From Dictyostelium discoideum (Eukaryota): DNA of 64,000 nt. The notes beneath the pieces are model-generated. The model was not told where the DNA came from, searched no databases, and saw only the letters and a program-made list of their open reading frames with translations. The stretch is from contig CM000153.2 in assembly GCA_000004695.1 (NCBI GenBank), forward strand, positions 3,040,001 through 3,104,000, written 5' to 3'. The position numbers and the translations under genes are program-made. Below are positions 5,701 through 53,107 of the stretch, one piece after another (the first letter of the stretch is position 1; every line of letters starts with the position of its first letter).

Positions 5701-6100
5701 TAGTATTGAAATTCCAATTAATAATAATAATATAAATTCAACATCAGGAGTTTCATTGGAAGTTACTTCAAGTTTTAGTGTTTTTAATGAAATTATAGTT
5801 TTTGAAATTTTAGGTACAGATGGTAATTCTTTAATAATTTTTGGTATTGTAGTTAGTTTGGTTCTATTATTTTATTTAATGTTTGGATTTAAAAGAAATT
5901 TAACCAATGGTATATTAAATGGTAAAACCAACTCATTTGAATTACTCCCAATGAATGGTGATGATTTAGGTGCTCCTGATGATGATTGTTTTCCTGAGAA
6001 AGGCTACATTTTTAATCCTAATGACATTAATGATTCAACTCTTAGTGATATCTTGGTTAATGAATTCATTGAGTCAAAAGCAACTTGTGAAACTGATTAA
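2778..6100 (+). CDS. Tandem paralog (copy 2) of the IPT/TIG-EGF membrane glycoprotein. Exons: 2778..3076, 3164..3720, 3823..6100. It has an N-terminal signal peptide and an Asn-rich insert. One base missing near 4700-4712 relative to copy 1 splits the last exon into ORFs 3930..4730 and 4769..6100, so it is a possible pseudogene or a sequencing error.
   Basis: ATG at 2778 followed by a hydrophobic leader (MEKNHVFQLIFYSILILIVNVNS). GTATGT donor at 3077 and AG acceptor at 3162-63; GT donor at 3721 and AG at 3821-22. Intron phases are consistent (299 nt phase 2; 557 nt phase 1). Exon 3 aligns with copy 1 from position ~1 onward. The EGF-like block is near-identical (CPNNCSGNGHCDGSLNCICDEGFSGYDCS), as are the TM helix and the tail ...DILVNEFIESKATCETD. 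Copy 1 'caacctataagagacggt' corresponds to copy 2 'caactacaagagatggt' (17 vs 18 nt). Confidence 0.6.
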
Positions 6101-6908
6101 TTTAATTAATAAAAAAAAATAAAAAAATAAAAAAAAAGCCATTGGAAAAAAAGAAATCAATTCATTTTTTCACTTTTTTAAAATTATCTATTCAAGTCTA
6201 ATTAAATAACAAGATAAAAGGGCAAAACAACCCAATAATATTTAAATAATAAATCAAAAAAAAATTTAATTATCTTTGATGATTCATCAAAGTGTTTTAA
6301 AAAATTAGATCAGCATCAATGGAAAAGGAACTAATAATTGCAATACAAATAAAAGAGTTTTTTTTTTTTTTTTTTTTATCATTTTTTTAGATGTGGGGTT
6401 TTATAGATTTTTAAAAAAAAAAAATAAAAAAAATAAAAAACAAACCAATTCAATAAAATCTATTTTTCCCTATTCATTTTTCTTCAAAATATAAAAGGAA
6501 TTACAAAAAATGAATGTTAAATAATTAAATTCTAAAAATAAAATTTTATATTAAAAAAATAAAAAAAAAAATAAATAAATTCAAAAAACAGAAATTACAA
6601 ATTAATTCATTTTTTTTATATTTTAAATCATTTTGTGTATTTACAAGTGTTCTATTTATCTAAACTAAATCCATATTAAAATAAATAAAACTAAATCATT
6701 GTAAAAAAAAAAAAATTTTAAAACTAAAAAAAAGGAAATATTTTAAAGGGGAGAAAAAAAAAAAAATTAAAAAAATTAAAAAAAATAAAAAAAACAAAAC
6801 CCTATTTAATCCTATTGAAAAGGTTTTTGATAGGGTGGTTTATTTTAGAAAAAAAAAAAAAAAATACAAACAAGGAAAATCTGTAAATTTTTATTTTAAT
6901 TTTTTAAT

Positions 6909-6963
<55 letters not shown>

Positions 6964-6971
6964 GTGAATAT

Positions 6972-7042
6972 AAAATATCCACTTTAATCCCAATTATTCA
7001 AATTGTGAAATTAAATATCCACTTTAATCCCAATTATTCAAA
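6972..7042 (+). promoter_or_regulatory. Perfect 31-bp direct repeat (aaatatccactttaatcccaattattcaaat, x2, 40-bp period) ending 27 bp upstream of the peroxiredoxin ATG. Candidate promoter element.
   Basis: Copies at 6972..7002 and 7012..7042 are identical. They sit immediately 5' of the CDS start at 7069 and 3' of a T(50) tract. Confidence 0.45.
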
Positions 7043-7068
7043 TATAAAAATAAATAATTAGAAAAAAA

Positions 7069-7362
7069 ATGACAAAATTAAAAGTTGATGACCAAGCTCC
7101 AGATTTTTCTGGAATTGACCAAAATGGTAAAAATATCTCATTGAGCCAATTTAATGGAAAACCATTAGTATTATTTTTCTATCCAAAAGGTAAAGTAATA
7201 ATTTAAAAAAAAAGAAAAAAACATATATATATATATTAATCTATATAAATTAATATTTTTAAAATTAAATGTATTAATATTTTATTATTGTTATTATAGA
7301 TGATAGTAAAACTTGTACAAATGAAGCATGTGAGTTTAGAGATAAGTATAGTTCATTTGTAA

Positions 7363-7418
<56 letters not shown>

Positions 7419-7766
7419 CATTAAATAATAAAATTAAATATTAATTAATTATTTTTATTTAAAATTAATTAGGTAAATGCTGGTGCTGATGTTATTGGTA
7501 TAAGTAATGATGATCCAGAATCTCATGCAAACTTCATTTCCAAGAATAGCCTTCCATACACTTTAATCTCTGATAAAGATGGTGAAATTGCTAAAAAGTA
7601 TGGTGTACATAAAGAATTATTATTCTTTCCAGGAAGAACCACCTTTATTTTAAATAAGGATCATAAAATTATTGGTACCCATTCAAGCTTAATTAATGCA
7701 TCATCTCATATTCAAGAATCACTTAAAGCAATTGACCACTTGAAAGGTGGTACACCAGTTCACTAA
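7069..7766 (+). CDS. Peroxiredoxin of the BCP/PrxQ (AhpC/TSA) family. Three exons: 7069..7189, 7300..7358, 7473..7766.
   Basis: Spliced protein [109 protein letters not shown]... Hallmark FYPKD..T..CT peroxidatic-Cys motif. GTAAAG/GTAAGT donors, AG acceptors, phases consistent (121 nt phase 1; 59 nt). Confidence 0.85.
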
Positions 7767-7825
7767 AAAAAAAACTAAAAAAAACAAAAATCCAAAAAAA
7801 ATTTTTTACCAAGAAAAACAAAATC

Positions 7826-7862
<37 letters not shown>

Positions 7863-7965
7863 ATCCAAAAACTCTAAATTAGAAAATAAATAAAATAAAT
7901 CATAGTTATTAAATCCATACAAATTTTACAATAAATAAAACCCATTTAAGTATTTTATAATTTTA

Positions 7966-8910
7966 TTAATTTTTCTTTGAAGAATTTGAAGATGAAGATA
8001 ATTTTCCTTTATCTCTTTTTTTCTTTATTACATTATCTTGTTCCACTATTTCATTTCTATCGTTTATCTAAAAATTAATAAATAAATAAATAAAAAAAAG
8101 AATTTATTAATAACCACCCCCACCCCAATTAAATTAATAAAATAAATAATAAAACCTAATAAAATAAATAATAAAACCTACAGAATTTAAATAAGTAGAA
8201 GAAGATGTTGAAAAAAGACGATCAGATTCTTTCCATCTTAATTTTTTTAAAGCGCCACTACCAGATATATAACTATCAAATCCTCTAATAACATTACCCA
8301 CATGATGAGTATCCTCTAAATATCTGCCCTCCAATGCATAAATTTGTTTCTCTAGTGTGGCTAATTTATTTTCTATATTCTTTTTCTCTGACATTAACTC
8401 TTCAATCTCCACTATAACCTCTTGTTTCATCCTTTTCTTTGGTAATATTGTTGCTATTGGTGTAACTACTGCTGCTGTTGTAGTTGTAGTTGTAGTTGTT
8501 GGTGTTGGGGTTGTTGTTGGTGTTGCATTCGCATTTGTAGATGATGATAATGATGATGATGATGATGATGTATCTGTATTACTATTTAATGTATTTGTAG
8601 TGGTTGTTGATGGTGATGGTGATGGTGATGGTGATGGTAATGTTGTTGTGGTAGTATTAGTTGTATTAGATGGTTGTGCATTTGTTGATGATGATGTTGA
8701 TACTGTGGTTGGTGTTGAATTTGTTTCATTTGTTGTTGTTACTATTTTCTTATCATTATTTTCTGTGGGGGTCAAAGATGGTATAGGTATATTACTACTT
8801 GATTTTTTATTTGATTTTTTATTTACACTTTTTTCATTGTCTTCTATAACATCCTCTCCATCAATTGTTTCCTCTTCTGTTTCCATTGTTACATCTTTAT
8901 TTTCACTCAT
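7966..8910 (-). CDS. MEAF6/Eaf6-like chromatin modification protein (NuA4/HBO1 HAT complex subunit) with a long Ser/Thr/Asn-rich N-terminal extension. Proposed 2 exons: 8910..8182 and 8067..7966.
   Basis: C-terminal core ...KKNIENKLATLEKQIYALEGRYLEDTHHVGNVIRGFDSYISGSG matches the Eaf6 coiled-coil/YLEDT..GN.I.GFD signature. The ORF as given runs into AT-rich junk (VGFIIYFIRFYYLFY). A phase-0 donor TCT|GTAGGT at 8181 and an AG acceptor at 8068 give a terminal exon ...INDRNEIVEQDNVIKKKRDKGKLSSSSNSSKKN* (33 codons, in frame, stop at 7966-68). Confidence 0.6.
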
Positions 8911-9570
8911 TTTTTTTTTTTTTTTAATTTTCCTTTTTTAATTAAAACACTAAAAAAATTTGAAGAAATTTGAAAAATTTTTAAAAAAAAAAAAAAAAAA
9001 AATAATTTCCAAAGTGGCGCAAAAATAACAAAGCATAATTAAAATGTAATGTTTAATAAAATTTAAATAGAAAAAAAAATATCTATTCCTTTTTTCTTAA
9101 ATTTACATTTTATTATTGAATTGATTTAAAAAAAAAATAATAATAATAATAAAAAAAATAAAAAAAAATATTTAAATTATTTTTTTTTTTTTTTTTTTTT
9201 TTGAGAATTACTAAAAAAATAATAAGCAAATAATAAATAAATAAAAAAGTATTAAAATAATATAGGAAAAATTGATTTCTTTTTTTCCATTTATGTTTTT
9301 TTTCCATTTATGTTTTTTTTTTTTTTTTTTTTTTTTTTCAATTTATTTTATTTTTTTTTTATTTTTATTTTTTTTAATTTTAATTATTTTTTAATTTTTT
9401 TTAAATTTTTTCTGATTTATTATATATATATATATAATCAAACTAATAAATAAATAAAAAAGTAAAGATTTGTAAGTATTGTTTTATGTTTTTTTGTTTT
9501 TTTTTATTTTTTTTTTTATATTTTTTTTATTTTTTAATATCACATTATGTGTTAATATAGTGAATCAAAA

Positions 9571-9639
9571 AACGAGCCAACGTTAAAATTTTTTTTTTTT
9601 TTTTCAATTTTTTGAAAAATTTTTCACGAAGGGCTCGTT
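9571..9639. promoter_or_regulatory. GC-containing inverted repeat (aacgagcc ... ggctcgtt) flanking a T-rich 53-bp spacer, about 170-230 bp upstream of rpl17 in the shared rpl17/MEAF6 intergenic region.
   Basis: Arms 9571..9578 (aacgagcc) and 9632..9639 (ggctcgtt) are exact reverse complements. This is an isolated G+C island in an otherwise >90% AT intergenic stretch. Confidence 0.3.
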
Positions 9640-9804
9640 GAAATCTTTTTTTTTTTTGATTTTTTTTATTTTTTTTTTAGTGTGTGTATTGAAAATGTAT
9701 GTAACTGATATCATGAATCCGTTTTTCTCAATCTATGACAAAAGATTGAACAATTATTTTTTTTGTATTAATACTAACTTTATCTATCTCAATCTTTAGT
9801 AAAA

Positions 9805-11377: not shown

Positions 11378-12946
11378 CTAAAGTGTATATTCTTCACCTT
11401 CACTCTCTGAATTTTCATTACTATTATTAATATTATTATTATGGGTATTATTATTTGATCCAAATTTATTTAAATTTCTATTACTACCACTATTATTACT
11501 ACTTCCATTACTGCTAATACTAAAAAAAAAAAAATTTGGAAATGTTGAAAAAAAAAATCTTAAAAATGAACTTGAGGATTTTGAATTTGATAGTTTTGGA
11601 ACACCATGTCTCCATTCATCTTGATTATTACTATTTGGTGAGCCAAATTTGGATTTATCAGGACTTTTACTTAAATTATAATCAATTGATGAGTTTAAAT
11701 TTGATTGGTGCCTATTATTATTATTATTATTATCTATATTATTATTATTATAATTATTATTATTTTGTTTATCAAATGAAGAATTTAAAGAAGGTTTAAA
11801 ATTATTTTCAAAACTATTTAAAACATTAATTGAAGAATCTGGATTTGGTAAAGTTGAAATTGCTTTCCAATTACCATCATTATATACAAGTTCCCATTGA
11901 GCTCTTTGAGCTTTTAGGGTAAGACTATTTTCAATTAGTTGAACGATTGCATTTTGAATTTCAGATAACCATTGTGAACGTACTTGTTGGCTTTCACAAA
12001 CGAAATAATGAGTTTTAATGGGTGAAACTAAAAAAAAAGAAGTTGTATCTTCAGAGTTGAAAATTGTCATTGCAGTTACTAATGGAATGATTTTATCAAC
12101 TTTACTAATAGTAGTACCAGATAGTGGTGTGATTGAACTAATTGTAATTAGGATATCATTACAAAGGTAAACCATTCTATTTTGAATGGAATTATCACGT
12201 AATGATTTCTTTTGTAGTTTGCCCTCTTTAATGAGTTTTCTGTGCGCTTCCACTAGATTTGGGTAAGTTAATGGTCCTAAATATTTTGCATGTGTATCGA
12301 ATATATTCTGTAATGCTATTAGTTTCTTTCGATTTTGGTCCTCACTTATACCGTCATTTACAACCTGTGCTATATTTTTCAATTGAGTTGCTGCCAATGA
12401 GCATTGATGATAATCTTTATGTGTGGGTTTGGTGGCTGTATATAATGCTTCCAATAATAGTATATATCGTGGTACCCTTTGAATTGGTGCTATCAATAGT
12501 GAGGGTAGATCCAATGATTTACAACGTATATCTTTTTCACGTGCTTTTAACCATAGATTAAATTGTGGTGTATTGGTTCTAAGATTCTTTAATGTTTCAA
12601 TTGAGTTACTATAATTTTCTGAATATTGTTTATAACATTTAAAAAATGGACTTAAACTAACAAATATATCTCCCATACCTTGTTCGGGTGACCATTGTTT
12701 TAATCTTGGATCAATCTTTTCAAATAATATATTACTTAATCCATAGATATTCTCTATATGTGAAAATATTGAATGAATATCACTCTCTTTAATAGTCCAT
12801 TGAAATCCTTCTACTGATTCTTGTTTACAAATTAACATCATTGGTTTTAAAAATAATTCAATAATTGTATTTAATTGTTCATTATAATATTTTTCTGTTG
12901 ACCAAATTTCTTTTGAAATTTCTCTTCTTTTAATTTCCAGTTTAAC
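11378..12946 (-). CDS. Rho guanine-nucleotide exchange factor (DH domain followed by a PH-like region) with an Asn/Ser-rich C-terminus. The 5' exon(s) are not resolved.
   Basis: DH signature ...DIRCKSLDLPSLLIAPIQRVPRYILLLEALYTAT... The frame stays open upstream of the annotated Met as ...KLEIKRREISKEIWSTEKYYNEQLNTIIELFLKPMM (start of the DH domain) up to an AG acceptor near 12946, so at least one more upstream exon exists. Confidence 0.7.
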   Translation of the reverse strand, partial: VKLEIKRREISKEIWSTEKYYNEQLNTIIELFLKPMMLICKQESVEGFQWTIKESDIHSIFSHIENIYGLSNILFEKIDPRLKQWSPEQGMGDIFVSLSPFFKCYKQYSENYSNSIETLKNLRTNTPQFNLWLKAREKDIRCKSLDLPSLLIAPIQRVPRYILLLEALYTATKPTHKDYHQCSLAATQLKNIAQVVNDGISEDQNRKKLIALQNIFDTHAKYLGPLTYPNLVEAHRKLIKEGKLQKKSLRDNSIQNRMVYLCNDILITISSITPLSGTTISKVDKIIPLVTAMTIFNSEDTTSFFLVSPIKTHYFVCESQQVRSQWLSEIQNAIVQLIENSLTLKAQRAQWELVYNDGNWKAISTLPNPDSSINVLNSFENNFKPSLNSSFDKQNNNNYNNNNIDNNNNNNRHQSNLNSSIDYNLSKSPDKSKFGSPNSNNQDEWRHGVPKLSNSKSSSSFLRFFFSTFPNFFFFSISSNGSSNNSGSNRNLNKFGSNNNTHNNNINNSNENSESEGEEYTL

Positions 12947-15335: not shown

Positions 15336-16667
15336 ATGGTATTAATTACAAGATATTTACCATCAGTAACAGATAATAATCAACCAGCATTAGAAGGTCA
15401 AAGTAAAGATCAAATTGTTGATACAGTTATTACAAGTACTACAGTTGGTATTATTAATCAATTAACAATGTTAGTTGCACATTCCAATAGTATTTTCACA
15501 GCTTTAGCTAATGATGCAAATTTGGTAACACAAAGAATTGAGAAATTAGGATCTAGAATTAGACCACTCATTCAATCAATACCATCGATTGAAGATTATC
15601 ATAGAAATACATCAATCGATACAATGAATAGTAAACCAAGAGCAGAGTTTCATGCTGATAACAGTGAAAGAAATCAACATTTTACTCATGCCTCAATACC
15701 GGCATCAATCAATACTGTCTATGAAAAATGTAAACCACCACCAAATCTTCAATTATTGGACCCATACATGGACGATGGTCAAAAATCATTAAAACTCTAC
15801 ACCAATCCAGACTTTTTCATGGATGAATGGGTTGCTGAACAACAAAAACTTCATGAAGAGGCCAGACAAAGAAAACGTGAGCGTAGAGAAGCACGTTTAA
15901 AGAAAAAAGGTGAAAAGAATGAAGTAGAGGTTAAAAAAGTTAAATCCGTTACAAAGGTACGTTATGATCCTGTAACTGGTGAGAAAATTACTATCAATAT
16001 TGAAAGTCCACACACTTCATCACCACAAATTCAACATCAATCCAACAACACCGCCACTCCACAACATACCACCCAACACTTTGGTACCAATCAATACCAA
16101 GCACCACCACCACCACCATTATCTCAATCTTCACCATCTCAACAACATTCACCAATCAATTCCTATACTCCACCTCCACCACCATTAAATACAAGCACCC
16201 CTTCACCATCCTCTTCATTCCAAGGTAGACCACCTTCAACTGGTTTCAATACTCCACCACCACCAATGTCAAATAATAATAATATGCCACCACCACCACC
16301 AATGCAACAAAATGGTGGAGCTGCAAACAATCGTTTATCAGTCCATAACTCGGCTCCAATTGTTGCTGCTCCAGCTCCACCACCACCACCACCACCACCT
16401 TCAGCACCTGCCCCACCACCACCTCCAATGGCTAAAGCTGGTGGAGGTGCCTCTGACATTAAACCAAAAGCATCCGGTGCTCGTTCAGATCTTCTCTCTT
16501 CAATTATGCAAGGTATGGCATTAAAACCAGCTGAAGAACGTAAGGTTGCTGAAGCTCCAAAGAAAGAAGAAGCATTGAATGTAGCTGATATTCTCGCTAG
16601 ACGTATTGCTTGGGCTGGTGATAGTGATTCCTCTGAAGATGAATCTGATGATTCTGATTGGGATTAA
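15336..16667 (+). CDS. scrA: SCAR/WAVE actin-nucleation promoting factor. It has the SCAR homology domain, a basic region, a poly-Pro region, a WH2 motif and an acidic tail with a terminal Trp. Single exon, 443 aa.
   Basis: N-terminus MVLITRYLPSVTDNNQPALEGQ...INQLTMLVAHSNSIFTALANDANLVTQRIEKLGSRI is the SHD. The PPPPPPPP tracts are followed by WH2 RSDLLSSIMQGMALKP and acidic ...DSDSSEDESDDSDWD*, i.e. a VCA region. Confidence 0.9.
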   Translation: MVLITRYLPSVTDNNQPALEGQSKDQIVDTVITSTTVGIINQLTMLVAHSNSIFTALANDANLVTQRIEKLGSRIRPLIQSIPSIEDYHRNTSIDTMNSKPRAEFHADNSERNQHFTHASIPASINTVYEKCKPPPNLQLLDPYMDDGQKSLKLYTNPDFFMDEWVAEQQKLHEEARQRKRERREARLKKKGEKNEVEVKKVKSVTKVRYDPVTGEKITINIESPHTSSPQIQHQSNNTATPQHTTQHFGTNQYQAPPPPPLSQSSPSQQHSPINSYTPPPPPLNTSTPSPSSSFQGRPPSTGFNTPPPPMSNNNNMPPPPPMQQNGGAANNRLSVHNSAPIVAAPAPPPPPPPPSAPAPPPPPMAKAGGGASDIKPKASGARSDLLSSIMQGMALKPAEERKVAEAPKKEEALNVADILARRIAWAGDSDSSEDESDDSDWD

Positions 16668-17090
16668 AAAATATATTTTTGGTACCAAAAACTATCACTC
16701 TTGCGAAATTTAAGTTATAAAAAGAAAAAAAAAATAATAAAAAAATTTAAGTTAATAAAAAAAAATATAATAAGAATAATGCATAATCATTTTAATTTAC
16801 GTGTCCTGTTTTGATGGATTTTTTTTTTTTTTTGAGTTAAAGGTATTACTTTATTTATTTATTCAATTTTTATAATTATTAAATTATTAATTATAAAATT
16901 TGTTTAAAAATAAATGTATAAAATAATAAATAATTTTAATAATGGAAAAGTATTTATAATAAATTGGGTGTTTGCAATAATTATTTGAACTTTTTAGTAT
17001 TGTATGTTGTCTGTTGTTGTTTGTTTGTTTGTTTTTTGAAACTCAAGGTTATAACATCCGAAGTTCGGATTTTTATGAAAAATCCAAAAG

Positions 17091-17162
17091 CTCCCTGTCC
17101 GGGAATTGAACCCGGGCCTTTCGCGTGACAGGCGAAAATCCTCACCACTAGACCAACAAGGA
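17091..17162 (-). tRNA. tRNA-Asp (anticodon GUC), 72 nt.
   Basis: The reverse complement is TCCTTGTTGGTCTAGTGGTGAGGATTTTCGCCTGTCACGCGAAAGGCCCGGGTTCAATTCCCGGACAGGGAG. It has a 7-bp acceptor stem, anticodon loop CUGUCAC, a B box GGTTCAATTCC, and is identical to the plus-strand copy at 33029..33100. Confidence 0.92.
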
Positions 17163-17197
17163 TATTTGATATTTTTTGTTATCGAATTGCATAATTT

Positions 17198-17248
17198 GGT
17201 ATAATACAGCCAATTCAAAAAAAAAAAAAAAACGGTATAATACAACCA
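17198..17248 (+). repeat. 15-bp direct duplication (ggtataatacagcca / ggtataatacaacca) flanking an A16 tract, 36-86 bp upstream of the minus-strand tRNA-Asp 5' end (17162). It looks like target-site duplications around a vestigial poly(A) retro-insertion.
   Basis: 17198..17212 and 17234..17248 share 14 of 15 bases, separated by 'attc' + A16 + 'c'. Confidence 0.4.
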
Positions 17249-18105
17249 TGAAATAATTTGTGAAATAATATTTCAAATAATAATTTTATTAATTTCATCA
17301 AAGATCAAAAATAATATTTTTTATTTAATTTTATTATTAATAATTATGTCACTCATTTAATTTATTATAAATATAAAAAAAAAATTTATTTTTAATTCAG
17401 GTTGTTAATCTCAATGTTAAGCGATAAAAGCTATTAAATAAAAATATAAATAAATAAATATAAATATAAATATAAATATAAATTAATATATAAAGTGTTT
17501 TAAAGATTATTAAATATAAAATTAAGATTAAATTTTAAATATAAATAAAAATTATAATATTTGTAATATAATTACAAAAGACCACTTTCGTTACATTTTT
17601 TTGTAATAAAGCTCGTTTGGTTTATTTTTAATTAATATATTTATATTTAAGATTTATATATTTGTTTAATATTTTGTTATCTTCATTTATAGTTTGTATT
17701 TTAATTATAATAATCGGATAATATTTATAAAATTAATATTTAGTATTTATATTGTTTATAATGAGTTGATAGAATTATTATTATTATTATTTAAATGTGT
17801 GTCATAAATAAAACTAATTATTATTGTTTATTTCATTAATGGATAAACCCTGATTAATCAATATTAAAAATTGAAGCTTATTCCATTATTAAATTTAATT
17901 TTTTTTGTGATCATTTGTATTTTTTTACAAATAATAATAATATAAATAATATAAATATAATAATAAAAATATATTAAATATGATAATAAAAATAATTATA
18001 AAATATAATTAAATAAATATATTTGATTTAAATAATAAAAGTTATAATAAATAAATAATAAAAAAGAGACCAAAAAACTATTATTATTATTTTTATCATT
18101 TATTT

Positions 18106-20463
18106 TTAATGAGAACAAGTTGCAGCATATTCGCAGCAATCATTGCATAAATCTTTTGGACTTTTTTCAAGTTTAAATGATACACATTTTAGACCTTGTG
18201 ATTGACAATTTAAATCATAACATGATAGACAATTTGTTTTGAGACAAATGGCATTATTTTCAAAATTATAACAACCTTCTCCTTTTCCACATTTTTTATT
18301 ATAGCATTTATCATATGGTAGTGATGATGTTGTTACTCCTGATGTTGAAGACAAAGTTGAGGATAGAGTTGAAGATAAAGTTGTTGCTAATGTTGAAGAT
18401 AAAGTTGATGAAATGGTTGAAATTAGTGTCGAGGAAACATCAGTAGATACAGCTGTCAAAGATATGGTTGAGCCAAATGTTGAAGCTATAGTTGAAGCAA
18501 GGGTAGTTGCTATTGTTGAAGCAATTGTTCCTTCATCAGATACTGGGCTTGTGGATATTGTTGATGCTAATGAAATTGGGATTTCACTAACTGTTTGTGG
18601 TGGTGTTGTTGGTGTTCCTGTTGTTTGCGATGTTGTTGTTGTGGTTGTTGTTGAAGTCAAACCAATAGTTGAACCTATTGTTGAAGCAATTGTTGAGCCC
18701 AAAGTTGAAGCAGTTGTTATATCAATATCACTAGAACTTTCTTGATTACTTGAGTTTTCAATTGAAGAACTACCACAATCAATAATTTCAGAATAAACAC
18801 ATTGTCCATTTGATATATCACATTGTCCAACTATACAAGGGTTAATATGAGTACAATTAACAGGTTTAACTATACAAAGGCCTAGAAGAAAAGGATCACA
18901 CTCTTGAATTTCACATGGGTTTGATGAAATACAAGCTGAACTATCACATGGAATACAATTTGGAATAAAAGTATTTACGCACCCAACAGGAGGATCACAT
19001 TCATCTATTGTGCAGGGATTAGAATCATCACATGAAATATCAGTTGAAACACAACCTTGATAAAGATGACACTCTTGAGAAACACATAAATTTCCAGGAT
19101 ACTCTTCTGTACAATTGAATTCATTATGTTGACAATTAAATTCATCAATACATATACCTTTTTCACAAAAATATTCATCAGTTGGACACTGTGGACTACC
19201 TTCAAAACATCTACATGCTTTTGTTTAATTGAAAAAATTTAATTTATAAATATTTTTGTAAATTACTTGGAAAAGTTTTTTTTTTTTTTTTTTTTTTTTT
19301 TACTACTTACATGAACCATCACCATAACAAACACCACAATCATCAAAATAATCACAATTTAGTGGATACTCTGATTTAATTCTTGAGTTTTTTATTAAAA
19401 AAGAGAGCAGTTTTAAAATAAATAAAATATAATAAAGTAAAAAAAAATAAAAAAAACTTTACATACTCAAAATAATGAATGTTTGGTCTATATTTTCTAT
19501 TACAATTAATGATTGAAGTTTGGATTGGCTCACCACCCCCACCAAAATCTGTTAGTAGAAATCCAACATCTCTGTATTCTACAATTCCAAGATATTCAGA
19601 TACAGGTCTTCCATTAACATAAACGAATAAATCATCAGAGTGACTAATAGAAACAAAGGTTGATTGATGTATTGTGGGGATAATTGTAAAGAAATCAAAA
19701 CGAATACACCATTTATAATTATGATCCAATCCTTCATTACCAAATCCCGCATAGTCAACTTTTAAATTAAAATATTAAATGATAATAGTAAAGAAAAAAA
19801 AAAAAAAAAAAAAAAAAAACTTATTAATATGTTAAAAAATAAAATAAAATAATAATTATTATATACTTACTTGGGAAAAAACTGGGACTGCCAAAATAAT
19901 GGCCATCAAAATACATATTACCATGCCCAGGGTAATTTACCAGAGGATCTTCTTCTGTAATCCATGATATTAAAGTGGTTTGATTATGTATCTAAATTAT
20001 TTTAATGGTTTTAATATAAAAACAATAAAATTATAATATAATGCATAAAAAAAAAAATAAAAAAATAAAATTACCAATTCATAAGTATTTGTATCATCTA
20101 ATGTTGGTTGACTACCTAGTGAATAATCTAAACCCAATCCAAATGGACCCCATACTGGAAAAGTATTGGATTGAAAGGTGAAAGTGTTATCAGGAACTAA
20201 ATTCTTATCAAAGTCTATGTTTCTATCAGATTGATCAAAATACAAAAATTCTACATTTTGTGACAAAACTATTTTTTTATAAAAAAGTATTTATAATTAT
20301 TGATTTAATATATTATTCTTTATTTTGTTTCCTCAATCTAATTTGATTTATTTTTATTTTCATTTTTATTTTTGGAATAAAGAAGAAATTGATATTTACC
20401 ATTTATTACAAATAAAATTTGAACAAATATAATTATGATCAAGTTTTTATTTATTATAACCAT
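18106..20463 (-). CDS. Secreted or cell-surface protein with an N-terminal signal peptide, a PA14-like domain, multiple Cys-rich EGF-like repeats, a Ser/Thr-rich O-glycosylation region and a C-terminal Cys-rich knot. Psi (prespore-inducing factor)-family-like. Six exons.
   Basis: Exon 1 (20463..20400) encodes MVIINKNLIIIIFVQILFVIN. Donors and acceptors read on the minus strand: GTAAAT, GTAATT, GTAAGT, GTAAAG, GTAAGT; acceptors at about 20264, 19991, 19762, 19387, 19217. Middle exons encode ...FTFQSNTFPVWGPFGLGLDYSLGSQPTLDDTNTYEL / IHNQTTLISWITEEDPLVNYPGHGNMYFDGHYFGSPSFFPK / VDYAGFGNEGLDHNYKWCIRFDFF...VYVNGRPVSEYLGIVEYRDVGFLLTDFGGGGEPIQ (PA14-like). The last exon (about 19217..18106) encodes ~20 Cys in CxxxC/EGF-like spacing, STIASTIGSTIG Thr/Ser repeats and ...CNDCCEYAATCSH*. 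Confidence 0.65.
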
Positions 20464-33028: not shown

Positions 33029-33100
33029 TCCTTGTTGGTCTAGTGGTGAGGATTTTCGCCTGTCACGCGAAAGGCCCGGGTTCAATTCCCGGACAGGGAG
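33029..33100 (+). tRNA. tRNA-Asp (anticodon GUC), 72 nt. Second copy, identical to the minus-strand gene at 17091..17162.
   Basis: TCCTTGTTGGTCTAGTGGTGAGGATTTTCGCCTGTCACGCGAAAGGCCCGGGTTCAATTCCCGGACAGGGAG. The 3' flank shares cttttg...CCGAACTTCG with the other copy. Confidence 0.92.
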
Positions 33101-33213
33101 CTTTTGCTATTTTTTCAAAAACCCGAACTTCGAAAATTTGTAGTTTTTAATTTTTAAAAAAATCTGGACTGAAAATTTTTTAAAAAGGAATACTTATTTA
33201 TAAATTTTAAAAT

Positions 33214-35848
33214 TGACCGAGATTAAGGATAGAAAAGGATGAATTACTTTTCACGTGTATCTTGTATCCTCTTGGTCGCGGTACGGTTTTTTTTTTATAT
33301 TCTATATATATTATCAGACACCTGTCAAAAAAGAAAGGAAAGGAATCATTGAGAGCTTCATAGAGAGTATCTACCCTTCACCATCCAAACCGCAGCTATA
33401 CGACTCCCAAGAGGAGATCGATATCATCTCATAATGGTAGTAATCAAAATCAACCAATGGAATGTCAGAGGTTGGGGCACTGACACCTCCTTCAAAAACA
33501 AAACAGACTTTATCAAATCCCAATCCCCCCCAAACTCATTGGCACTAACCATAGTCAATGAACTCAATGCTGACGCAACACAAGCACACCAGCTATTTCC
33601 TGGCTCCATCATTAGTGCAACCAACAGAGGCAACGGAATAGGAATACTAAACAACAACAACCAAAACATAAAACTCTCACCAATATTCATAATAGAAGGT
33701 AGACTAATAATATCAGACATTCTAATAAAAGATACCACAACGAGAATCTTGGCCATATACGCCCCGGCCCAACTTGATAAAAGAAAAATACTAGCTTCAA
33801 CACTTAACAAACACTTCAACAACCAATACCACAACCTAACGTCTAACCCTAAAAAAAACATCGACATCATAGCAGGTGACTTCAATTGTTTAGACTTCAA
33901 TGACAATCACACATCAAATGACGACCAAGGCAACTTGACAACACAATCCCCAGATGAGATGGCCACAGTAATTGAAGCCATCAGAATTTCAAATAACCTA
34001 ATGGATATGGACCAACTAAATAAAAGACCCACCTTCTCAAGAACGATACACAACACAAACAATAACCTCACAAGAATCTTGGAAAGGAGACTAGACAGAA
34101 TATACCTTAACAATAGCATAATCAACTACAGCCAATTATACTTAAGGAACCTAATCCCCCCAAAAATTAATGACATACCTCTATCAGATCACAACTTCCT
34201 ATCAACCACCTTCACTCTACCCAACATACAGATGAACAAGCGCAGATGGAGATTAAAAAAATCCTCAATCCTCTCAAGCATAATGCTTAAGAAAATAGAC
34301 TTCCTACTTAACGATTATTCAAGAGAGCTGTCATCCAACCATAACTCTATTTCCTTCTCTCAACTCAACAGCTTACTAAACAAAATAAAACAACTATACA
34401 CAGAATTTCTAAAACAAAATGACTACAACAATAAGGCAAACATCAAAAATCTAATCTTCCTACTAGAGACAGAATTTAAAGACCAAGCCTTCGCAACCCT
34501 TTCAGCAATAAATGAATCTAAAAAAAGAGAAGAACAACTTAAACAAGAATTGAACAACTATTGCGAAGAAACCTCACTCAAGTACATCTCCGCGAGAATC
34601 AAGAAAAGACACAATGATTTCACCATCAACGCAGTAAAAGATGCACAAGGTAGAACAATCAACAAACAGGAATTGATCGAAGAAGAATACGTAAAGTATT
34701 ACTCAAATCTTTATGACTACAAAGAAGATGACCCACCATCTCATTATGAAATGTTGGAAAATTGGACAGTGACCAGGGACTCAACATGGGACAACCTTGA
34801 AAATGAATTCACAACACAAGAGATCCTAGAAGTAATAAAACAATTGAACCCACACAAATCTCCAGGCCCAGGTGGAATTCCAAACTTATTCTACATAACA
34901 CACAAAGAAAAACTAGCTCCAATACTGGCCTCAGCATTCAACGACACTCTAAGAAATCCTCATCTAATTAGCAAAAATTACAAAGAAGGCCTCATTATCA
35001 CGATACCTAAAAAGGGAGACCCCGAACTAATCAAAAACAGAAGACCAATTACACTGGCTAACTGTATATATAAAATCCACTCAAAACTAATAAACAATAG
35101 AATAATCCCTATACTAACGAAAGTGATCAACCACAATCAAAAAGGTTTCGTACCAGGCAGATTCATTCTAGATAATATCATATCAATGAACGAATTAATC
35201 AACTACTGTAATGATAAAAGAATTAACGGAATAATTACACTATATGATTTCGAAAAAGCTTTTGACTCGATCTCACACGGTTCAATACTCAGATCACTAC
35301 AACACATATACATTCCAACCAATATAATCAACCTGATAATGAATCTACTCACCAAATCTGAAGCAAGAATTGAAATTAATGGTAGAACTACTATACCCTT
35401 TGAGATCAAAAGAGGAGTCAAACAAGGAGATCCACTATCACCCACCCTGTTCGTCCTTGTAATAGAGGCTTTAGCTAGAAAAATTTTACAAGATGACCGA
35501 ATTACTGGCCTTCCTCTAAACAACAGCAACCACAGAGAGAAATTCCAAAGCTTTGCAGACGACTCGGCTTCAATGGTCCCAGACTCTCAATAACTTGAAT
35601 TAGTACTACAACACTTCAATTCATTTTGCAAAGCCACTTCCTCAAAACTAAACATCGACAAATCTTCATCAATTCTTATAGGCAACCCAGACAATACCAA
35701 CCAAAGAATTCCAATATCTACAAATCCAGAAAGATACTTGGGATACTTCTTCACAGGCAAAGGGATAACAAGAAAAATGCCAGAAATATTAAACACAATA
35801 AGATCATCCTTAGTACTATGGAAAACCACTGACTCAACAATCAAAACC
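33214..35848 (+). mobile_element. Non-LTR (LINE-like) retrotransposon copy A, TRE3-type (tRNA-gene-targeted, 3' side). It begins about 114 bp downstream of tRNA-Asp. It has a ~220-bp 5' leader, an ORF with an APE-type endonuclease and reverse transcriptase (33434..35593), no ORF1, an in-frame TAA at 35591-93, and is interrupted by the assembly gap.
   Basis: ORF MVVIKINQWNVRGWG... (APE N-motif) ... RT motifs ...GIITLYDFEKAFDSISH...FADDSASM... The position relative to the tRNA gene matches the known TRE3 integration preference in Dictyostelium (established knowledge). Antisense and alternate-frame small ORFs in the track are by-products. Confidence 0.75.
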
Positions 35849-35948
35849 NNNNNNNNNNNNNNNNNNNNNNNNNNNNNNNNNNNNNNNNNNNNNNNNNNNN
35901 NNNNNNNNNNNNNNNNNNNNNNNNNNNNNNNNNNNNNNNNNNNNNNNN
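35849..35948. other. Assembly gap (100 N).
   Basis: Run of n characters. Confidence 1.
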
Positions 35949-37305
35949 ACTTTATAACCACTATAAGACCAAAAAATATGTATACAGATTTTGATTGGTA
36001 TAAATCACTCACAGAAATAGAATGGGTAATAGAAAATGAAGGATGTAAACTAATTAAATCAGAAATTAAAGGCGAAACTCTAATTATCAAAACAGTGAAA
36101 AGAGTCGTAGAAGAATTTGACACTATCATTGAACTAGACAATCTAACATTAATTGGACACTCCAACAAAGGATGGAGAGATCAAACCTCATTACCAGAAA
36201 ATCAAGAAGAAAACAAAAATAAAAAACAATCAGATGAACAACAACCACAATCTACATCAGAACAAATACCAAAACAAGGAAAAAGAACAATCATTATCCC
36301 ACCAATCACATCCTCATCTAATGATAAAACATTTATGGCCCTAGATGATACAGCTCAAAAGGTAATAGAAGCATCACTAGAAAACGTAGATGAACTAACA
36401 AGAATAGAGAATGAGATCAATACACAATCGATAAACAATCAAGAAATTAAAACAAAATCAGAAAAACCTATCGAACCACCATCTCCATACAATACACCAA
36501 TAAAACAACACGGCGAAACAAAGGGACTAACAACGGAAGAAAAACTTAGAGAGGCAAATGATATCTTCGACTTCACCAGCCCAAACACTGATGCAATAAG
36601 AAAAATAGAATTCCCACTTTCAATCCCTTCAAATCAATGGTTCTTCTCCTCTCCAATAAAACATATCATGAGTTTCAGCCCAACCTATGGTACACCATCG
36701 AAAATTATCGATTCACCAAGTAAATTGTTAAACACACCAAAAAAGAAACAACAAGACAAAACAAACAAGACCAACAAAACACCAGTCAAACCAAAATTGG
36801 GTGAATATGGACAAAAAAGCATAAAAACAAAAATGGATGAAGATATAGACAACTTCAACAAGGAAATTCTAAAACAAATCAATAAATCAAAAAACCCCAC
36901 AAACACACAAGACCAACAACACAATGAACAAAGTAAAGATCAGTTAGAAGACAAAATAAACCAGAAACTTCAAAAGGTAGATAAAAATCTACCCCAAATA
37001 AAACTATAAAGAAAAACACAATAAGAATAGGTGTTTGGAACGTCCAAGGATCCAACACCATCCAATCTGCCAGCATAATAAACACCGTTTTAGACAACAA
37101 CAAGCTGGACGCAGCACTTCTAACTGAAACAAATATAAAAACAAATAAAATTTACTCAATAAATCAACAATATAAAAACAAAATAACACACCACGCACCA
37201 ATTGATAAAACAGGACAAGGGGTGTCACAAATCATCATCAACACCCGCAATAGAACTTCCTAAACATCTCAAAAAATACAATAATTCACTCAGTACTTTC
37301 TATAA

Positions 37306-37345
<40 letters not shown>
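35949..37345 (+). mobile_element. Fragment of a second, different non-LTR retroelement. It has an ORF1-like protein (to 37009), then the N-terminus of a distinct APE endonuclease (IRIGVWNVQGSNTIQSAS...LLTETNIK..., 37021..37260), truncated and ending in an A(40) tail.
   Basis: After the gap the ORF (FITTIRPKNMYTDFDWYKSLTEIEWVIENEG...) no longer matches copies B/C of the first family. A new APE start motif follows the stop at 37009 and differs from the MVVIKINQWNVRGWG of copy A. Oligo(A) at 37305..37345. Confidence 0.55.
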
Positions 37346-37349
<4 letters not shown>

Positions 37350-37680
37350 CAGGTTAATCAGAAAAATAAAAAAGATAGAAAGAAAATAAAATGAAAATCA
37401 CAAACAACACCACAAATATTAAGCAACACAAATGCCTACAAAAAATAAGCGAAATTGTGGATAAAACTCAATTAAAAAAAAAACAATTCAAATACGTCAT
37501 AAACATCAATCACGAACCAGACGATAAAATAAAAAAAGATTTAGAAAAAAGTTTGGACAAAAAAGATGTTTTAATCAAAAAGACCCTGTAAAAAAAAAAA
37601 AAAAATAAAATGAGATCTAGCATCTCAAGGAGAAGCAAATAATAATTGCGTTATCCAATTCAAAAAAAAAAAAAAGTGGG
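37346..37680 (+). mobile_element. Additional retroelement 3'-end remnants: two further oligo(A) tracts (37598..37612, 37666..37679), each preceded by non-AT-rich tail sequence, and a 66-aa ORF at 37391..37591.
   Basis: Three oligo(A) tails within about 400 bp downstream of a tRNA gene, which fits nested or serial TRE3 insertions. The sequence is unlike the surrounding intergenic AT-rich DNA. Confidence 0.35.
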
Positions 37681-37951
37681 TATTTTATGAAAATTTTGTT
37701 GTATGGCTCTATTGATAATGACAAAGATGTTTTTTACAATTTTAAATTTGAAATTCCATAAAATATATAAACATCCATTTAAATAAATAATTAATCTTGT
37801 TTTTTATTTTTATAAAAAATTTTCAAATTTAATTGAAATTTTTTTCTTTTAAAATTACAAAAAAAAAATCCCACTTTTTTTTCACAAATAAAAAAAGTTT
37901 TTTTTTTTATTTTATTTATTATTTTTTTAATAAATTATTTTTTAAAAAATA

Positions 37952-48456: not shown

Positions 48457-48494
<38 letters not shown>

Positions 48495-50636
48495 TGGATT
48501 AACTAGATTGATATATGTCCATCTGTGTTAATACGAGTTTTTATTTAATATTTATTTATAGGCTTATCATTTAAGCTGAAGGGTTATTTTAATCATATGA
48601 ATTGATCGAAAGATATAATATTTGGGAGAGATGATTCTGGAATACAATAGTAATTAGCTGTTGTTTTTCTTAGCTTGATCGTTGAGGTGAGAAGGATCTT
48701 AGGATCTTTGAAATTATTATGGTCTTTTGCTGATAAGTTTTTCAGATCTTTTGCTTTTTTGATGTATTCTAGAGTGGCCAATTTGTGCCATTTCTTTAGA
48801 AGGGAGCTGTATGATAGTGATTCATTTGTTAAAGGATCTTCACTGTATATTTGATTGCAAATCCAAATCCAAATGTTGTGGAGGATAAGGGCCATTAGGT
48901 TTCTATATGCGAATGATCTGGTTAGATCATAGTCTATTGCTTTATAGTTCCATTCAAAGTATTCTTTGTGGAATCTGTGGTTGGCGTAATCTGCATTCAC
49001 TTCTTGATCTTTTTTGGCTGTCGGTGATAATTTTGGAGTTATTCTATTAATGAAATTGTTATTTTGCCTAATTCTTGTATGGTGCCAGTTTTTACCTTTG
49101 CCTGTGGTAATATAGATGAAATTTTTGAGTTTATTTATTTTTATGAATTGTTTTGTTTTCTTGCATGAGAAGAACAGGTGACCGTATGGGTCTTTGCTCA
49201 TATCTTCTTTGCAGAGTGGGCATTGTTTGTTGTGAAGGTAGTTTATTGGAAGGCATCTGGCCTGGAATCTAAACATTGTGTCTCTTGTTTTAGGGTCTTT
49301 TATCTTCAGTATGTTGTTGAAGAGTTGATTATAGCTGTAGCCTCTTAAGTTTAGAGATGATTGGAATTCCGTTTTAGGGATGGTTGGATTTTGGTCTTGA
49401 ATTGTGGTATACCATTCTACCAGTGAAAGTGGTTGTCCATTTTCGTTTTTTATGGATGTGAGATTATTGTTGAAGATTGCTTTTGTGATTCTTATTTTGT
49501 TCCATTCGTCTAAGTTTTCTTTTAGGTATCTGGATGTGAATTTGTTTTTTTGGATCTGATATTCCCAGCTTTTGTGATGCGATGAGTTTGTTTGTTTGGT
49601 TTCTAGTGCTAGGATGAACTGGTTTATGATCCAAAGTTTCTGCGCCAGTTGTCTCAATTCTATATTCCAAATGTTCCAACCCCCTACTTTTAGTGGATAT
49701 CTTGCTCTTTTGGTTCTCATTAAATTAATAACTTGAAATCCACTAGCATTTTTGTTGTTTGGTGCCGATAAAAACCATTCTACTAATTTATTTATTTGGT
49801 TTAATTCCTCTTCCTTAAAGTTCTCTACATATGAATAGTAGGTTAATTTAGAGAGTGCGAATGCTTTGAGGATGTTGGTTTTGGTTTTGATTGTTGAGTC
49901 AGTGGTTTTCCATAGTACTAAGGATGATCTTATTGTGTTTAATATTTCTGGCATTTTTCTTGTTATCCCTTTGCCTGTGAAGAAGTATCCCAAGTATCTT
50001 TCTGGATTTGTAGATATTGGAATTCTTTGGTTGGTATTGTCTGGGTTGCCTATAAGAATTGATGAAGATTTGTCGATGTTTAGTTTTGAGGAAGTGGCTT
50101 TGCAAAATGAATTGAAGTGTTGTAGTACTAATTCAAGTTATTGAGAGTCTGGGACCATTGAAGCCGAGTCGTCTGCAAAGCTTTGGAATTTCTCTCTGTG
50201 GTTGCTGTTGTTTAGAGGAAGGCCAGTAATTCGGTCATCTTGTAAAATTTTTCTAGCTAAAGCCTCTATTACAAGGATGAACAGGGTGGGTGATAGTGGA
50301 TCTCCTTGTTTAACTCCTCTTTTGATCTCAAAGGGTATAGTAGTTCTACCATTAATTTCAATTCTTGCTTCAGATTTGGTGAGTAGATTCATTATCAGGT
50401 TGATTATATTGGTTGGAATGTATATGTGTTGTAGTGATCTGAGTATTGAACCGTGTGAGATCGAGTCAAAAGCTTTTTCGAAATCATATAGTGTAATTAT
50501 TCCGTTAATTCTTTTATCATTACAGTAGTTGATTAATTCGTTCATTGATATGATATTATCTAGAATGAATCTGCCTGGTACGAAACCTTTTTGATTGTGG
50601 TTGATCACTTTCGTTAGTATAGGGATTATTCTATTG
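48457..50636 (-). mobile_element. Retrotransposon copy B of the same family as copy A, minus orientation. The 3' end (about 110-bp tail plus oligo(A), seen as T-run 48457..48490 on the plus strand) is intact. It runs through the RT and a C-terminal Cys-His region into the 100-N gap. It shares the in-frame TAA with copy A.
   Basis: ORFs 50138..50608 (...HNQKGFVPGRFILDNIISMNELINYCNDKR...ADDSASMVPDSQ*) and 48593..49993 (...GYFFTGKGITRK...CPLCKEDMSKDPYGHLFFSC...NIISFDQFI*). The tail gattaaaataacccttcagcttaaatgataagcc... is shared with copy C. Confidence 0.75.
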
Positions 50637-50736
50637 NNNNNNNNNNNNNNNNNNNNNNNNNNNNNNNNNNNNNNNNNNNNNNNNNNNNNNNNNNNNNNNN
50701 NNNNNNNNNNNNNNNNNNNNNNNNNNNNNNNNNNNN
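50637..50736. other. Assembly gap (100 N) between inverted retroelement copies B and C.
   Basis: Run of n characters. Confidence 1.
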
Positions 50737-53107
50737 TGGCCCAGTAATTGAAGCCATCAGAATTTCAAATAACCTAATGGATATGGACCAACTAAATAAA
50801 AGACCCACCTTCTCAAGAACGATACACAACACAAACAATAACCTCACAAGAATCTTGGAAAGGAGACTAGACAGAATATACCTTAACAATAGCATAATCA
50901 ACTACAGCCAATTATACTTAAGGAACCTAATCCCCCCAAAAATTAACAACATACCTCTATCAGATCACAACTTCCTATCAACCACCTTCACTCTACCCAA
51001 CATACAGATGAACATGCGCAGATGGAGATTAAAAAAATGAACGAATTAATCAACTATTGTAATGATAAAAGAATAAACGGAATAATTACGCTATATGATT
51101 TCGAAAAAGCTTTTGACTCGATCTCACACGGTTCAATACTCAGATCACTACAACACATCAACATTCCAACCAATATAATCAACCTGATAATGAATCTACT
51201 CACCAAATCTGAAGCAAGAATTGAAATTAATGGTAGAACTACTATACCCTTTGAGATCAAAAGAGGAGTTAAACAAGGAGATCCACTATCACCCACCCTG
51301 TTCGTCCTTGTAATAGAGGCTTTAGCTAGAAAAATTTTACAAGATGACCGAATTACTGGCCTTCCTCTAAACAACAGCAACCACAGAGAGAAATTCCAAA
51401 GCTTTGCAGACGACTCGGCTTCAATGGTCCCAGACTCTCAACAACTTGAATTAGTACTACAACACTTCAATTCATTTTGCAAAGCCACTTCCTCAAAACT
51501 AAACATCGACAAATCTTCATCAATTCTTATAGGCAACCCAGACATAACCAACCAAAGAATTCCAATATCTACAAATCTAGAAAGATACTTGGGATACTTC
51601 TTCACAGGCAAAGGGATAACAAGAAAAATGCCAGAAATATTAAACACAATAAGATCATCCTTAGTACTATGGAAAACCACTGACTCAACAATCAAAACCA
51701 AAACCAACATCCTCAAAGCATTCGCACTCTCTAAGTTAACCTACTATTCATATGTAGAGAACTTTAAGGAAGAGGAATTAAACCAAATCAATAAATTAGT
51801 CGAATGGTTTTTATCGGCACCAAACAACAAAAATGCTAGTGGATTTCAAGTTATTAATTTAATGAGAACCAAAAGAGCAAGATACCCACTAAAAGTAGGG
51901 GGCTGGAACATTTGGAATATAGAATTGAGACAACTGGCGCAGAAACTTTGGATCATAAACCAGTTCATCCTAGCACTAGAAACCAAACAAACAAACTCAT
52001 CTCATCACAAAAGCTGGGAATATCAGATCCAAAAAAACAAATTCACATCCAGATACCTAAAAGAAAACTTAGACGAATGGAACAAAATAAGAATAAAAAA
52101 AGCAATCTTCAACAATAATCTCACATCCATAAAAAACGAAAATGGACAACCACATTCACTGGCAGAATGGTATACCACAATTCAAGACCAAAATCCAACC
52201 ATCCCTAAAACGGAATTCCAATCATCTCTAAACTTAAGAGGCTACAGCTATAATCAACTCTTCAACAACATACTGAAGATAAAAGACCCTAAAACAAGAG
52301 ACACAATGTTTAGATTCCATGCCAGATGCCTTCCAATAAACTACCTTCACAACAAACAATGCCCACTCTGCAAAGAAGATATGAGCAAAGACCCATACGG
52401 TCACCTGTTCTTCTCATGCAAGAAAACAAAACAATTCATAAAAATAAATAAACTCAAAAATTTCATCTATATTACCACAGGCAAAGGTAAAAACTGGCAC
52501 CATACAAGAATTAGGCAAAATAACAATTTCATTAATAGAATAACTCCAAAATTATCACCGACAGCCAAAAAAGATCAAGAAGTGAATGCAGATTACGCCA
52601 ACCACAGATTCCACAAAGAATACTTTGAATGGAACTATAAAGCAATAGACTATGATCTAACCAGATCATTCGCATATAGAAACCTAATGGCCCTTATCCT
52701 CCACAATATTTGGATTTGGATTTGCAATCAAATATACAGTGAAGATCCTTTAACAGATGAATCACTATCATACAGCTCCCTTCTAAAGAAATGGCACAAA
52801 TTGGCCACTCTAGAATACATCAAAAAAGCAAAAGATCTGAAAAACTTATCAGCAAAAGACCATAATAACTTCAAAGACCCTAAGATCCTTCTCACTTCAA
52901 CGATCAAGCTAAGAAAAACAACAGCTAATTACTATTGTATTCCAGAATCATCTCTCCCAAATATTATATCTTTTGTTCAATTCATATGATTAAAATAACC
53001 CTTCAGCTTAAATGATAAGCCTTTAAATAAATATTAAATAAAACTCGTATTAACACAGATGGACATATATCAATCTTGTTAATCCAATATTAAAAAAAAA
53101 AAAAAAA
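50737..53107 (+). mobile_element. Retrotransposon copy C, plus orientation. It has an APE fragment (to ~51020), then an internal deletion of about 930 bp removing the N-terminal part of the RT, then the RT core, the C-terminal Cys-His domain, a ~110-bp 3' tail and oligo(A) at 53088..53107. The ORF 51022..52989 reads through (CAA) where copies A and B have TAA.
   Basis: ...MNMRRWRLKK is directly fused to MNELINYCNDKR... (compare copy A, about 34257 to 35189). The long ORF ends ...NIISFVQFI*. The 3' tail is identical to the reverse complement of copy B's tail. Confidence 0.75.

Follow-up and report, generated by a model that had tools for sequence, protein, structure and literature searches.

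Two nearly identical 15-mers enclose a run of 16 adenines a short distance upstream of a tRNA-Asp(GUC) gene of Dictyostelium discoideum, and the locus raises the question of what kind of event leaves behind so little sequence. TRE5-A and TRE5-C, formerly called DRE, are Dictyostelium non-LTR retrotransposons that target tRNA genes. The first-pass annotation of this DNA had noted a 15-bp duplication around A16, spanning 36-86 nt upstream of the 5' end of the tRNA gene, a description that the sequence, ARAGORN and Rfam all bear out (Table 1). We refer to this structure as the scar, and to the whole 64,000-nt stretch of DNA that was analysed as the window.

The two 15-mers are identical at 14 of 15 positions and differ by a G/A transition at position 12, a single mismatch which suggests, as far as sequence divergence can tell, that the event was not recent. 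The scar adds 36 bp in total, 21 of them new sequence, and its duplicated 15-mer has no further occurrence in the 64-kb window. Both duplication copies end with CCA (17210-17212 in the left copy), and the same three bases precede ATTC in the TRE5 C-module, resulting in a 3-nt microhomology at the 5' junction. This junction, after position 17212, lies 50 nt upstream of the tRNA +1 position, or 47 nt if CCA is counted as element sequence. The lone C at 17233 could be the first base of a since-mutated 16-bp duplication, a mutated base of the tail or an untemplated base. The base before the left copy is a T, which differs from this C by a transition; assuming two transitions, T/C and G/A, the duplication may have been 16 bp long, and a mutated tail base is just as possible. 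Rfam reported no other RNA gene at the scar site. Directly adjoining the right duplication copy on its right, 2.8 tandem copies of an AT-rich 12-bp unit (TGAAATAATATG, 17249-17282) show ordinary slippage in the same intergenic region.

Table 1. Coordinates, in the window, of the scar, its target gene and the TRE5-A.2 copy used as positive control
Feature	Position	Strand	Sequence or basis
Left (tRNA-proximal) target-site duplication copy	17198-17212	+	GGTATAATACAGCCA, 15 nt
ATTC, matching the last four nt of the TRE5 C-module; sole unambiguous element-derived part of the scar	17213-17216	+	C-module 3' ends, BLAST, A-run background
Oligo(A) tail of the scar, A16	17217-17232	+	Read from sequence
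Lone C separating the scar tail from the right duplication copy	17233-17233	+	Read from sequence
Right (tRNA-distal) target-site duplication copy	17234-17248	+	GGTATAATACAACCA, 15 nt
tRNA-Asp(GUC) gene, Pol III target	17090-17162	-	ARAGORN; Rfam RF00005, 61 bits; +1 = 17162
TRE5-A.2 3' part: ORF1 C-terminus, ORF2 stub, second B-module, C-module	35949-37675	+	Retroelement fragment; gap-free assembly
TRE5-A.2 C-module end, TTATCCAATTC	37651-37661	+	Followed by tail A14 at 37662-37675
Right target-site duplication of the TRE5-A.2 copy, 15 bp	37676-37690	+	GTGGGTATTTTATGA; left copy in L011

The geometry of the scar can be compared directly with the published behavior of TRE5-A. This element integrates ~47 bp upstream of tRNA genes; of 1,003 new integrations, 80% fall within 47+/-3 bp, and its 5' end always points toward the 5' end of the tRNA (PMC5391098), and full integrants lie between target-site duplications of 10-16 bp (PMC9012585). 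At 50 (or 47) nt, the scar junction falls among the genuine control copies, which lie at 45-52 nt, and the 15-bp duplication is inside the published range. The tRNA gene occupies the minus strand to the left of the scar and ATTC-A16 the plus strand, the tail being at the end away from the gene. The distance and head-to-head orientation that had originally suggested a TRE5 element thus hold up against the published values.

A TRE5-A.2 copy present in the same window serves as a positive control. Only two sites in the window consist of ATTC followed by at least 10 A, namely the scar and position 37658, where the sequence reads ...GCGTTATCCAATTC(A)14 and continues with the right target-site duplication of the TRE5-A.2 copy. 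The 5' part of this copy is hidden by the first of two assembly gaps in the window (35849-35948 and 50637-50736), and its missing half was supplied by the gap-free assembly GCA_054883475.1 (locus L011). There, the complete TRE5-A.2 occupies positions 6096-9724 and is composed, in order, of about seven tandem A-module-like repeats, a B-module, a 444-aa ORF1, an ORF2 stub, a second B-module, the C-module and A14. The twofold occurrence of the B-module (L011 7702-7922 equals window 37360-37580) is part of a layout that agrees with the AB-ORF1-BC order of TRE5-A.2 (PMC3159450). The left copy of its duplication, at L011 6081-6095, ends 50 nt upstream of an intron-containing tRNA gene on the opposite strand. 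The TRE5-A.2 copy and the scar therefore have in common a 15-bp duplication, a 50-nt junction and a head-to-head orientation, with tails of A14 and A16, respectively. A TRE3 origin, considered for the CCAATTC(A)n fragment downstream of a second tRNA-Asp gene, was dropped once the gap-free assembly identified this fragment as the 3' end of the TRE5-A.2 copy, lying head-to-head with the tRNA gene hidden in the reference gap.

The bases that separate the left duplication copy from the A-run offer a further level of detail. Nine more TRE5-A loci were retrieved via the multi-copy ORF1 protein, and comparison of the C-modules across loci L011-L020 revealed that 20 of 21 TRE5 C-module copies end with TTATCCAATTC(A)n, with n ranging from 8 to 29. 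The scar reads ...CAG-CCA, ATTC(A)16, matching the C-module end over four bases, or over seven counting CCA, and it carries the C-module terminus over these 4-7 nt only. The first-pass annotation had described essentially all element sequence as missing, which still stands; it had also treated ATTC as a mere spacer, and this part has to be revised, as the four bases equal the terminal four of the C-module and would most simply be their remnant. A literature search on the C-module terminal sequence retrieved nothing relevant.

To put a number on this match, we inspected all runs of at least eight A in ~225 kb of D. discoideum DNA, of which 28 out of 890 are preceded by ATTC. Exact C-module ends (TTATCCAATTC) account for 22 of these cases, two more are degenerate-looking (both in L018), two are footprints and two are unrelated. 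Outside TRE5 contexts, the background of ATTC thus amounts to ~2 per ~860 A-runs (~0.2%), with the reservation that four element bases, or seven with microhomology, are too few to exclude coincidence absolutely. BLAST of positions 17163-17960 against TRE5-A.2 returned a single match, of 17210-17238 to the last 29 nt of the element, and no internal TRE5 sequence (A- or B-modules, ORF1 or ORF2). Because only these terminal 29 nt are found, we file the scar as a TRE5-derived footprint and not as an element copy, with TRE5-A and TRE5-C not separable on 4-7 nt.

A search for other footprints consisting of a duplication and oligo(A), as suggested by the first-pass annotation, was carried out on both strands of the window and 17 loci (~330 kb; 1,303 runs of at least eight A). 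The pattern consisted of a 10-16 nt repeat, up to 10 nt of sequence, an A-run, 0-1 nt and the repeat again. It matched two of the 1,303 A-runs, the scar and one in L016, both at tRNA genes. Since the loci that supplied the second footprint and the majority of control copies were picked for carrying TRE5-A, this recurrence rate is not a genome-wide one. The L016 footprint (GCA_054883475.1, CM142509.1; scan match at 9010) consists of CATGGTTTCGTACAT, TC, A21 and CATGGTTTCGTACAT again, with a perfect 15-bp duplication, and its two parts are now located at 6603-6619 and 8995-9045. Its left copy (6603-6617) lies 48 nt upstream of a tRNA-Val(AAC) gene on the opposite strand (6495-6569, minus strand), at the distance and in the orientation of TRE5. 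The inserted TC, or ATTC when the AT of the duplication is counted as a 2-nt microhomology, likewise corresponds to the last bases of the C-module terminus, and the C equivalent to position 17233 here belongs to the duplication. Judging from the nested repeats, a TRE5-A.2 element appears to have integrated later 2 nt further out, duplicating TGGTTTCGTACATTC and splitting the footprint.

Longer truncated copies are found between these footprints and complete elements. Some 85 nt of the C-module are kept in L015, 48 nt upstream of a tRNA-Ser gene and with a clear flanking duplication, while a tandem array upstream of a tRNA-Ala gene in L017 includes copies that keep ~134 nt and ~38 nt, in both cases with an only approximate duplication. 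The scar would thus represent the short end of a truncation continuum.

The geometry, the match to the TRE5 terminus, the control copy and the second footprint all support the earlier proposal of extreme 5' truncation during target-primed reverse transcription. With a probability of roughly 0.85, we consider the scar to be the product of a retrotransposition at the tRNA-Asp gene that was abortive and extremely 5'-truncated, the element being a TRE5 with a C-module (TRE5-A or TRE5-C) and truncation probably occurring in the course of integration, not later. If the steps resemble those known for target-primed reverse transcription, the TRE5 pre-integration complex would be positioned by the tRNA gene's Pol III transcription complex, and the ORF2 endonuclease would nick the bottom strand where the duplication was to have its distal edge. 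Priming on the oligo(A) tail of the element RNA would then allow the tail and the last 4-7 nt of the C-module (...CCAATTC) to be copied, before synthesis halts after ~20 nt through enzyme dissociation or template degradation. The short cDNA would be joined to the staggered end of the top strand, probably via the 3-nt CCA/TGG microhomology, and fill-in would yield the 15-bp (possibly 16-bp) target-site duplication. Some observations speak against this explanation. The extra C at 17233 is unlike a textbook junction, and local slippage does occur next to the scar, in the 12-bp tandem repeat at 17249-17282. In addition, although 5' deletions are termed typical of TRE5-A, a trap assay notes that 5'-truncated TRE5-A copies often come with target-site deletions, not duplications (PMC3159450).

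Read as an insertion, the scar predicts a pre-integration allele shorter by 36 bp, CATAATTT-GGTATAATACARCCA-TGAAATAA. We infer the insertion from one allele state. Using the neighboring scrA gene (ORF 15336-16667, 100% identity to SCAR1), we located the orthologous locus in seven other assemblies, and none of them provided an empty-site allele: the only near-identical assembly, GCA_054883475.1, is filled, and the remaining ones are unalignable upstream of the tRNA gene. GCA_054883475.1 represents essentially the same strain, its only differences from the window being homopolymer lengths and one odd A/G cluster. In the other six (L005, L006, D. cf. discoideum, D. citrinum, D. dimigraforme and D. 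firmibasis), homology ends 13 nt upstream of the tRNA gene, or the tRNA gene is inverted or replaced. L005 and L006 keep it in place, and instead of the window's 784 bp upstream they carry 131-156 unrelated bp. In D. cf. discoideum, genes for tRNA-His and tRNA-Asn take the position of tRNA-Asp. Three D. discoideum assemblies have the tRNA-Asp gene on the minus strand; in D. citrinum, D. dimigraforme and D. firmibasis it occupies the plus strand. The scar is not present in the outgroups, where nothing upstream of the tRNA aligns. Mobile-element debris in the region downstream of scrA differs case by case (L002, L005-L010) and includes, in L010, tandemly arrayed C-module fragments with CCAATTCAAC(A)n at their ends. 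Taken from these comparisons, the tRNA gene next to scrA seems to be evolutionarily unstable.

A resemblance of L005 to the scar (TTGGTA...ATACAG...AATTC...A8) was considered as an ancestral A-run and dropped, since local alignments did not stand out from shuffled sequences (p=0.43 for L005 and 0.07 for L006) and alignment scores at the site were no better than those of neighboring intergenic DNA. A metagenome scan with the right duplication copy and its flank gave no matches; for an 83-aa spurious ORF across the site, aimed at short-read contigs, the exact look-up and the homologue search both came back empty. The same comparisons yielded two side observations. L005 and L006 (locus-tag prefixes ACTFIR and ACTFIW), both labelled D. 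discoideum, share ~86% identity with window positions 16500-19500, which cover the scrA 3' flank and the next gene. This divergence is far above the expectation for one species and suggests, from these alignments, deep cryptic lineages. Separately, the window and L001 differ by 12 substitutions over 9.3 kb, all of which fall together at 11381-11564, in the C-terminal coding part of the RhoGEF gene. Each of them is an A in the window and a G in L001, turning GAAGAAGAA-type codons into A-runs in the window, and the pattern resembles either a local artefact of sequencing or clustered hypermutation.

The main rival to abortive integration is a later deletion, in which a longer or full-length TRE5-A or TRE5-C element integrated first and was then removed between the CCA at the end of the duplication and the CCA within ...TTATCCAATTC. 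This would lead to the same end product, the 3-nt microhomology is available at both positions, and the tRNA upstream region has clearly undergone remodelling between lineages, as the window and L005 or L006 show. However, one breakpoint would have to hit the 5' boundary of the element exactly, and the L016 footprint would need the same coincidence again, with a different 2-nt microhomology. Truncation at integration, on the other hand, sets this junction automatically, and graded truncated copies exist. We therefore regard a later deletion as improbable.

Lower still is the likelihood that proteins of TRE5 or another TRE worked in trans on an unrelated cellular mRNA's poly(A) tail, which would turn the scar into a minimal processed pseudogene and ATTC into the end of a 3' UTR. 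Very short human mRNA retrocopies with poly(A) and duplications are documented (PMC2831318), and four bases cannot name the parent RNA. Nevertheless, ATTC/CCAATTC is the terminus of 20 of the 21 C-module copies against a background of ~0.2%, the L016 insert is once more a suffix of that terminus, and the C-module is reported to be essential for TRE5-A retrotransposition (PMC5391098).

The window has a GC content of 18-34%. Taken alone, the scar repeat is only mildly unusual, a second-order Markov null producing complex 15-mer near-repeats, with gaps of up to 60 nt, at 0.21 per 64 kb. Nor does an A-run carry any meaning by itself, as 130 runs of at least 12 A or T are present in the window. Still, the scar is the sole non-coding complex short-range repeat in the window, all others having periods divisible by three and lying inside coding repeats. 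The odds of such a repeat falling in the 7-nt TRE5 window at one of two tRNA genes are 0.21 x 14/64000, or ~5e-5, an estimate that leaves out the orientation, the adjoining A-run and the ATTC match; the combined features are far beyond chance. Tandem Repeats Finder detected no 36-bp period at the scar, and only 15 of the 36 nt recur, so that it is not a head-to-tail tandem. An origin with no retrotransposition at all, be it a chance repeat or a local duplication made by replication slippage or a template switch around an A-run already present in this AT-rich intergenic DNA, can appeal to the Markov figure, the many A and T runs and the directly adjoining 12-bp repeat, but is the least probable reading of all, given this lack of a tandem, the coincidence of position, orientation, duplication length and pre-tail bases with TRE5 values, and an architecture seen in only two A-runs of the scan.

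Compared with known systems, the abortive TRE5 integration that we favor is closest to truncated TRE5-A and TRE5-C copies, with which the scar has in common the position ~47+/-3 bp upstream, the head-to-head orientation, the 10-16 bp duplication and ...CCAATTC followed by oligo(A). Known and annotated TRE5 copies differ in that they keep recognisable modules (38-134 nt of C-module in the shortest ones here), whereas the scar keeps 4-7 nt. Short LINE-1-mediated retrocopies of mammals similarly combine poly(A), flanking duplications and a very short 3'-terminal piece of the template (PMC2831318), and microhomology at the 5' junctions of truncated L1 insertions has been analysed (PMC2912911). They belong to another enzyme lineage and host, and the pseudogenes reach up to 300 bp, whereas the template of the scar is shorter; the scar is also unlike the LINE-1 cases in being site-specific for Pol III genes.

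Under the preferred reading, TRE5 integration can abort after ~20 nt and yet be sealed with a normal target-site duplication. This biology is expected from LINE-type elements, so the finding refines rather than surprises. Such scars are invisible to similarity-based repeat annotation, and the present one is itself unannotated; the reported occupancy of tRNA genes, ~24% for TRE5-A and 61% for any TRE (PMC5391098), may therefore underestimate the targets that were actually used. The pattern of duplication, CCAATTC suffix, A-run and duplication makes a genome-wide census feasible, and this could provide a natural measure of how much target-primed reverse transcription is abortive and how much productive, in a model amenable to assays of new integration. 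We put forward only tentatively, at less than even odds, that abortive footprints (a duplication, 0-10 nt and oligo(A)) are common and unannotated at Dictyostelium Pol III genes, those of TRE5 upstream and those of TRE3 downstream. In that case, many tRNA genes counted as 'unoccupied' would in truth have served as targets already, and the spread of insert lengths, between 2 nt and the full element, would report in vivo on reverse-transcriptase processivity and on the way in which a site-specific LINE has its 5' end joined.

TRE3 elements are related APE-type non-LTR retrotransposons whose integration sites lie ~100 bp downstream of tRNA genes. They resemble TRE5 in their terminus and in having an oligo(A) tail, but differ in the side of the tRNA gene and in the terminal bases (ATATT vs AATTC). 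A TRE3 insertion was ruled out for the scar, which lies upstream of the tRNA gene and has the terminus CCAATTC(A)n, not TAATCCAATATT(A)n. The window itself contains three 5'-truncated copies of one TRE3-type element (APE and reverse transcriptase in ORF2), at 33316-35848 (+), 48460-50636 (-) and 50737-53108 (+). The first of these is located downstream of the second tRNA-Asp gene (33029-33101), and the two 3' ends at 48460 and 53108 both read TAATCCAATATT(A)n.

The segment between the two window gaps is inverted relative to GCA_054883475.1, L011 1-4990 corresponding to window 55725-50737. The breakpoints are inside the inverted TRE3 copies, and the intron-containing tRNA gene and the 5' half of TRE5-A.2 fall in the reference gap. 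The inversion is either a misassembly of the reference or a real, TRE3-mediated one. Beside the TRE3 3' end, a tRNA-like sequence of ~70 nt (GACCACRTTAATTCGYGG...CACGGAGGC) at 53120-53190 received no ARAGORN call and no Rfam match at E<=1; it is conserved at L002 8090-8180, upstream of the tRNA-Asp gene of D. firmibasis. Downstream of that same gene (8249-8321, plus strand), and starting 33 nt from it, positions 8354-8403 of L002 read GACACCCTGGGGCGA, ACGTAGGT-A10-TA and GACACCTTGGGGCGA, overlapping an external B-box-like GGTTCGACACC. An element 3' end at ~9052-9071 of the same locus (...CATAGGT(A)13) has a similar terminus. By its arrangement, 8354-8403 may be a TRE3-type footprint, a separate case from the scar.
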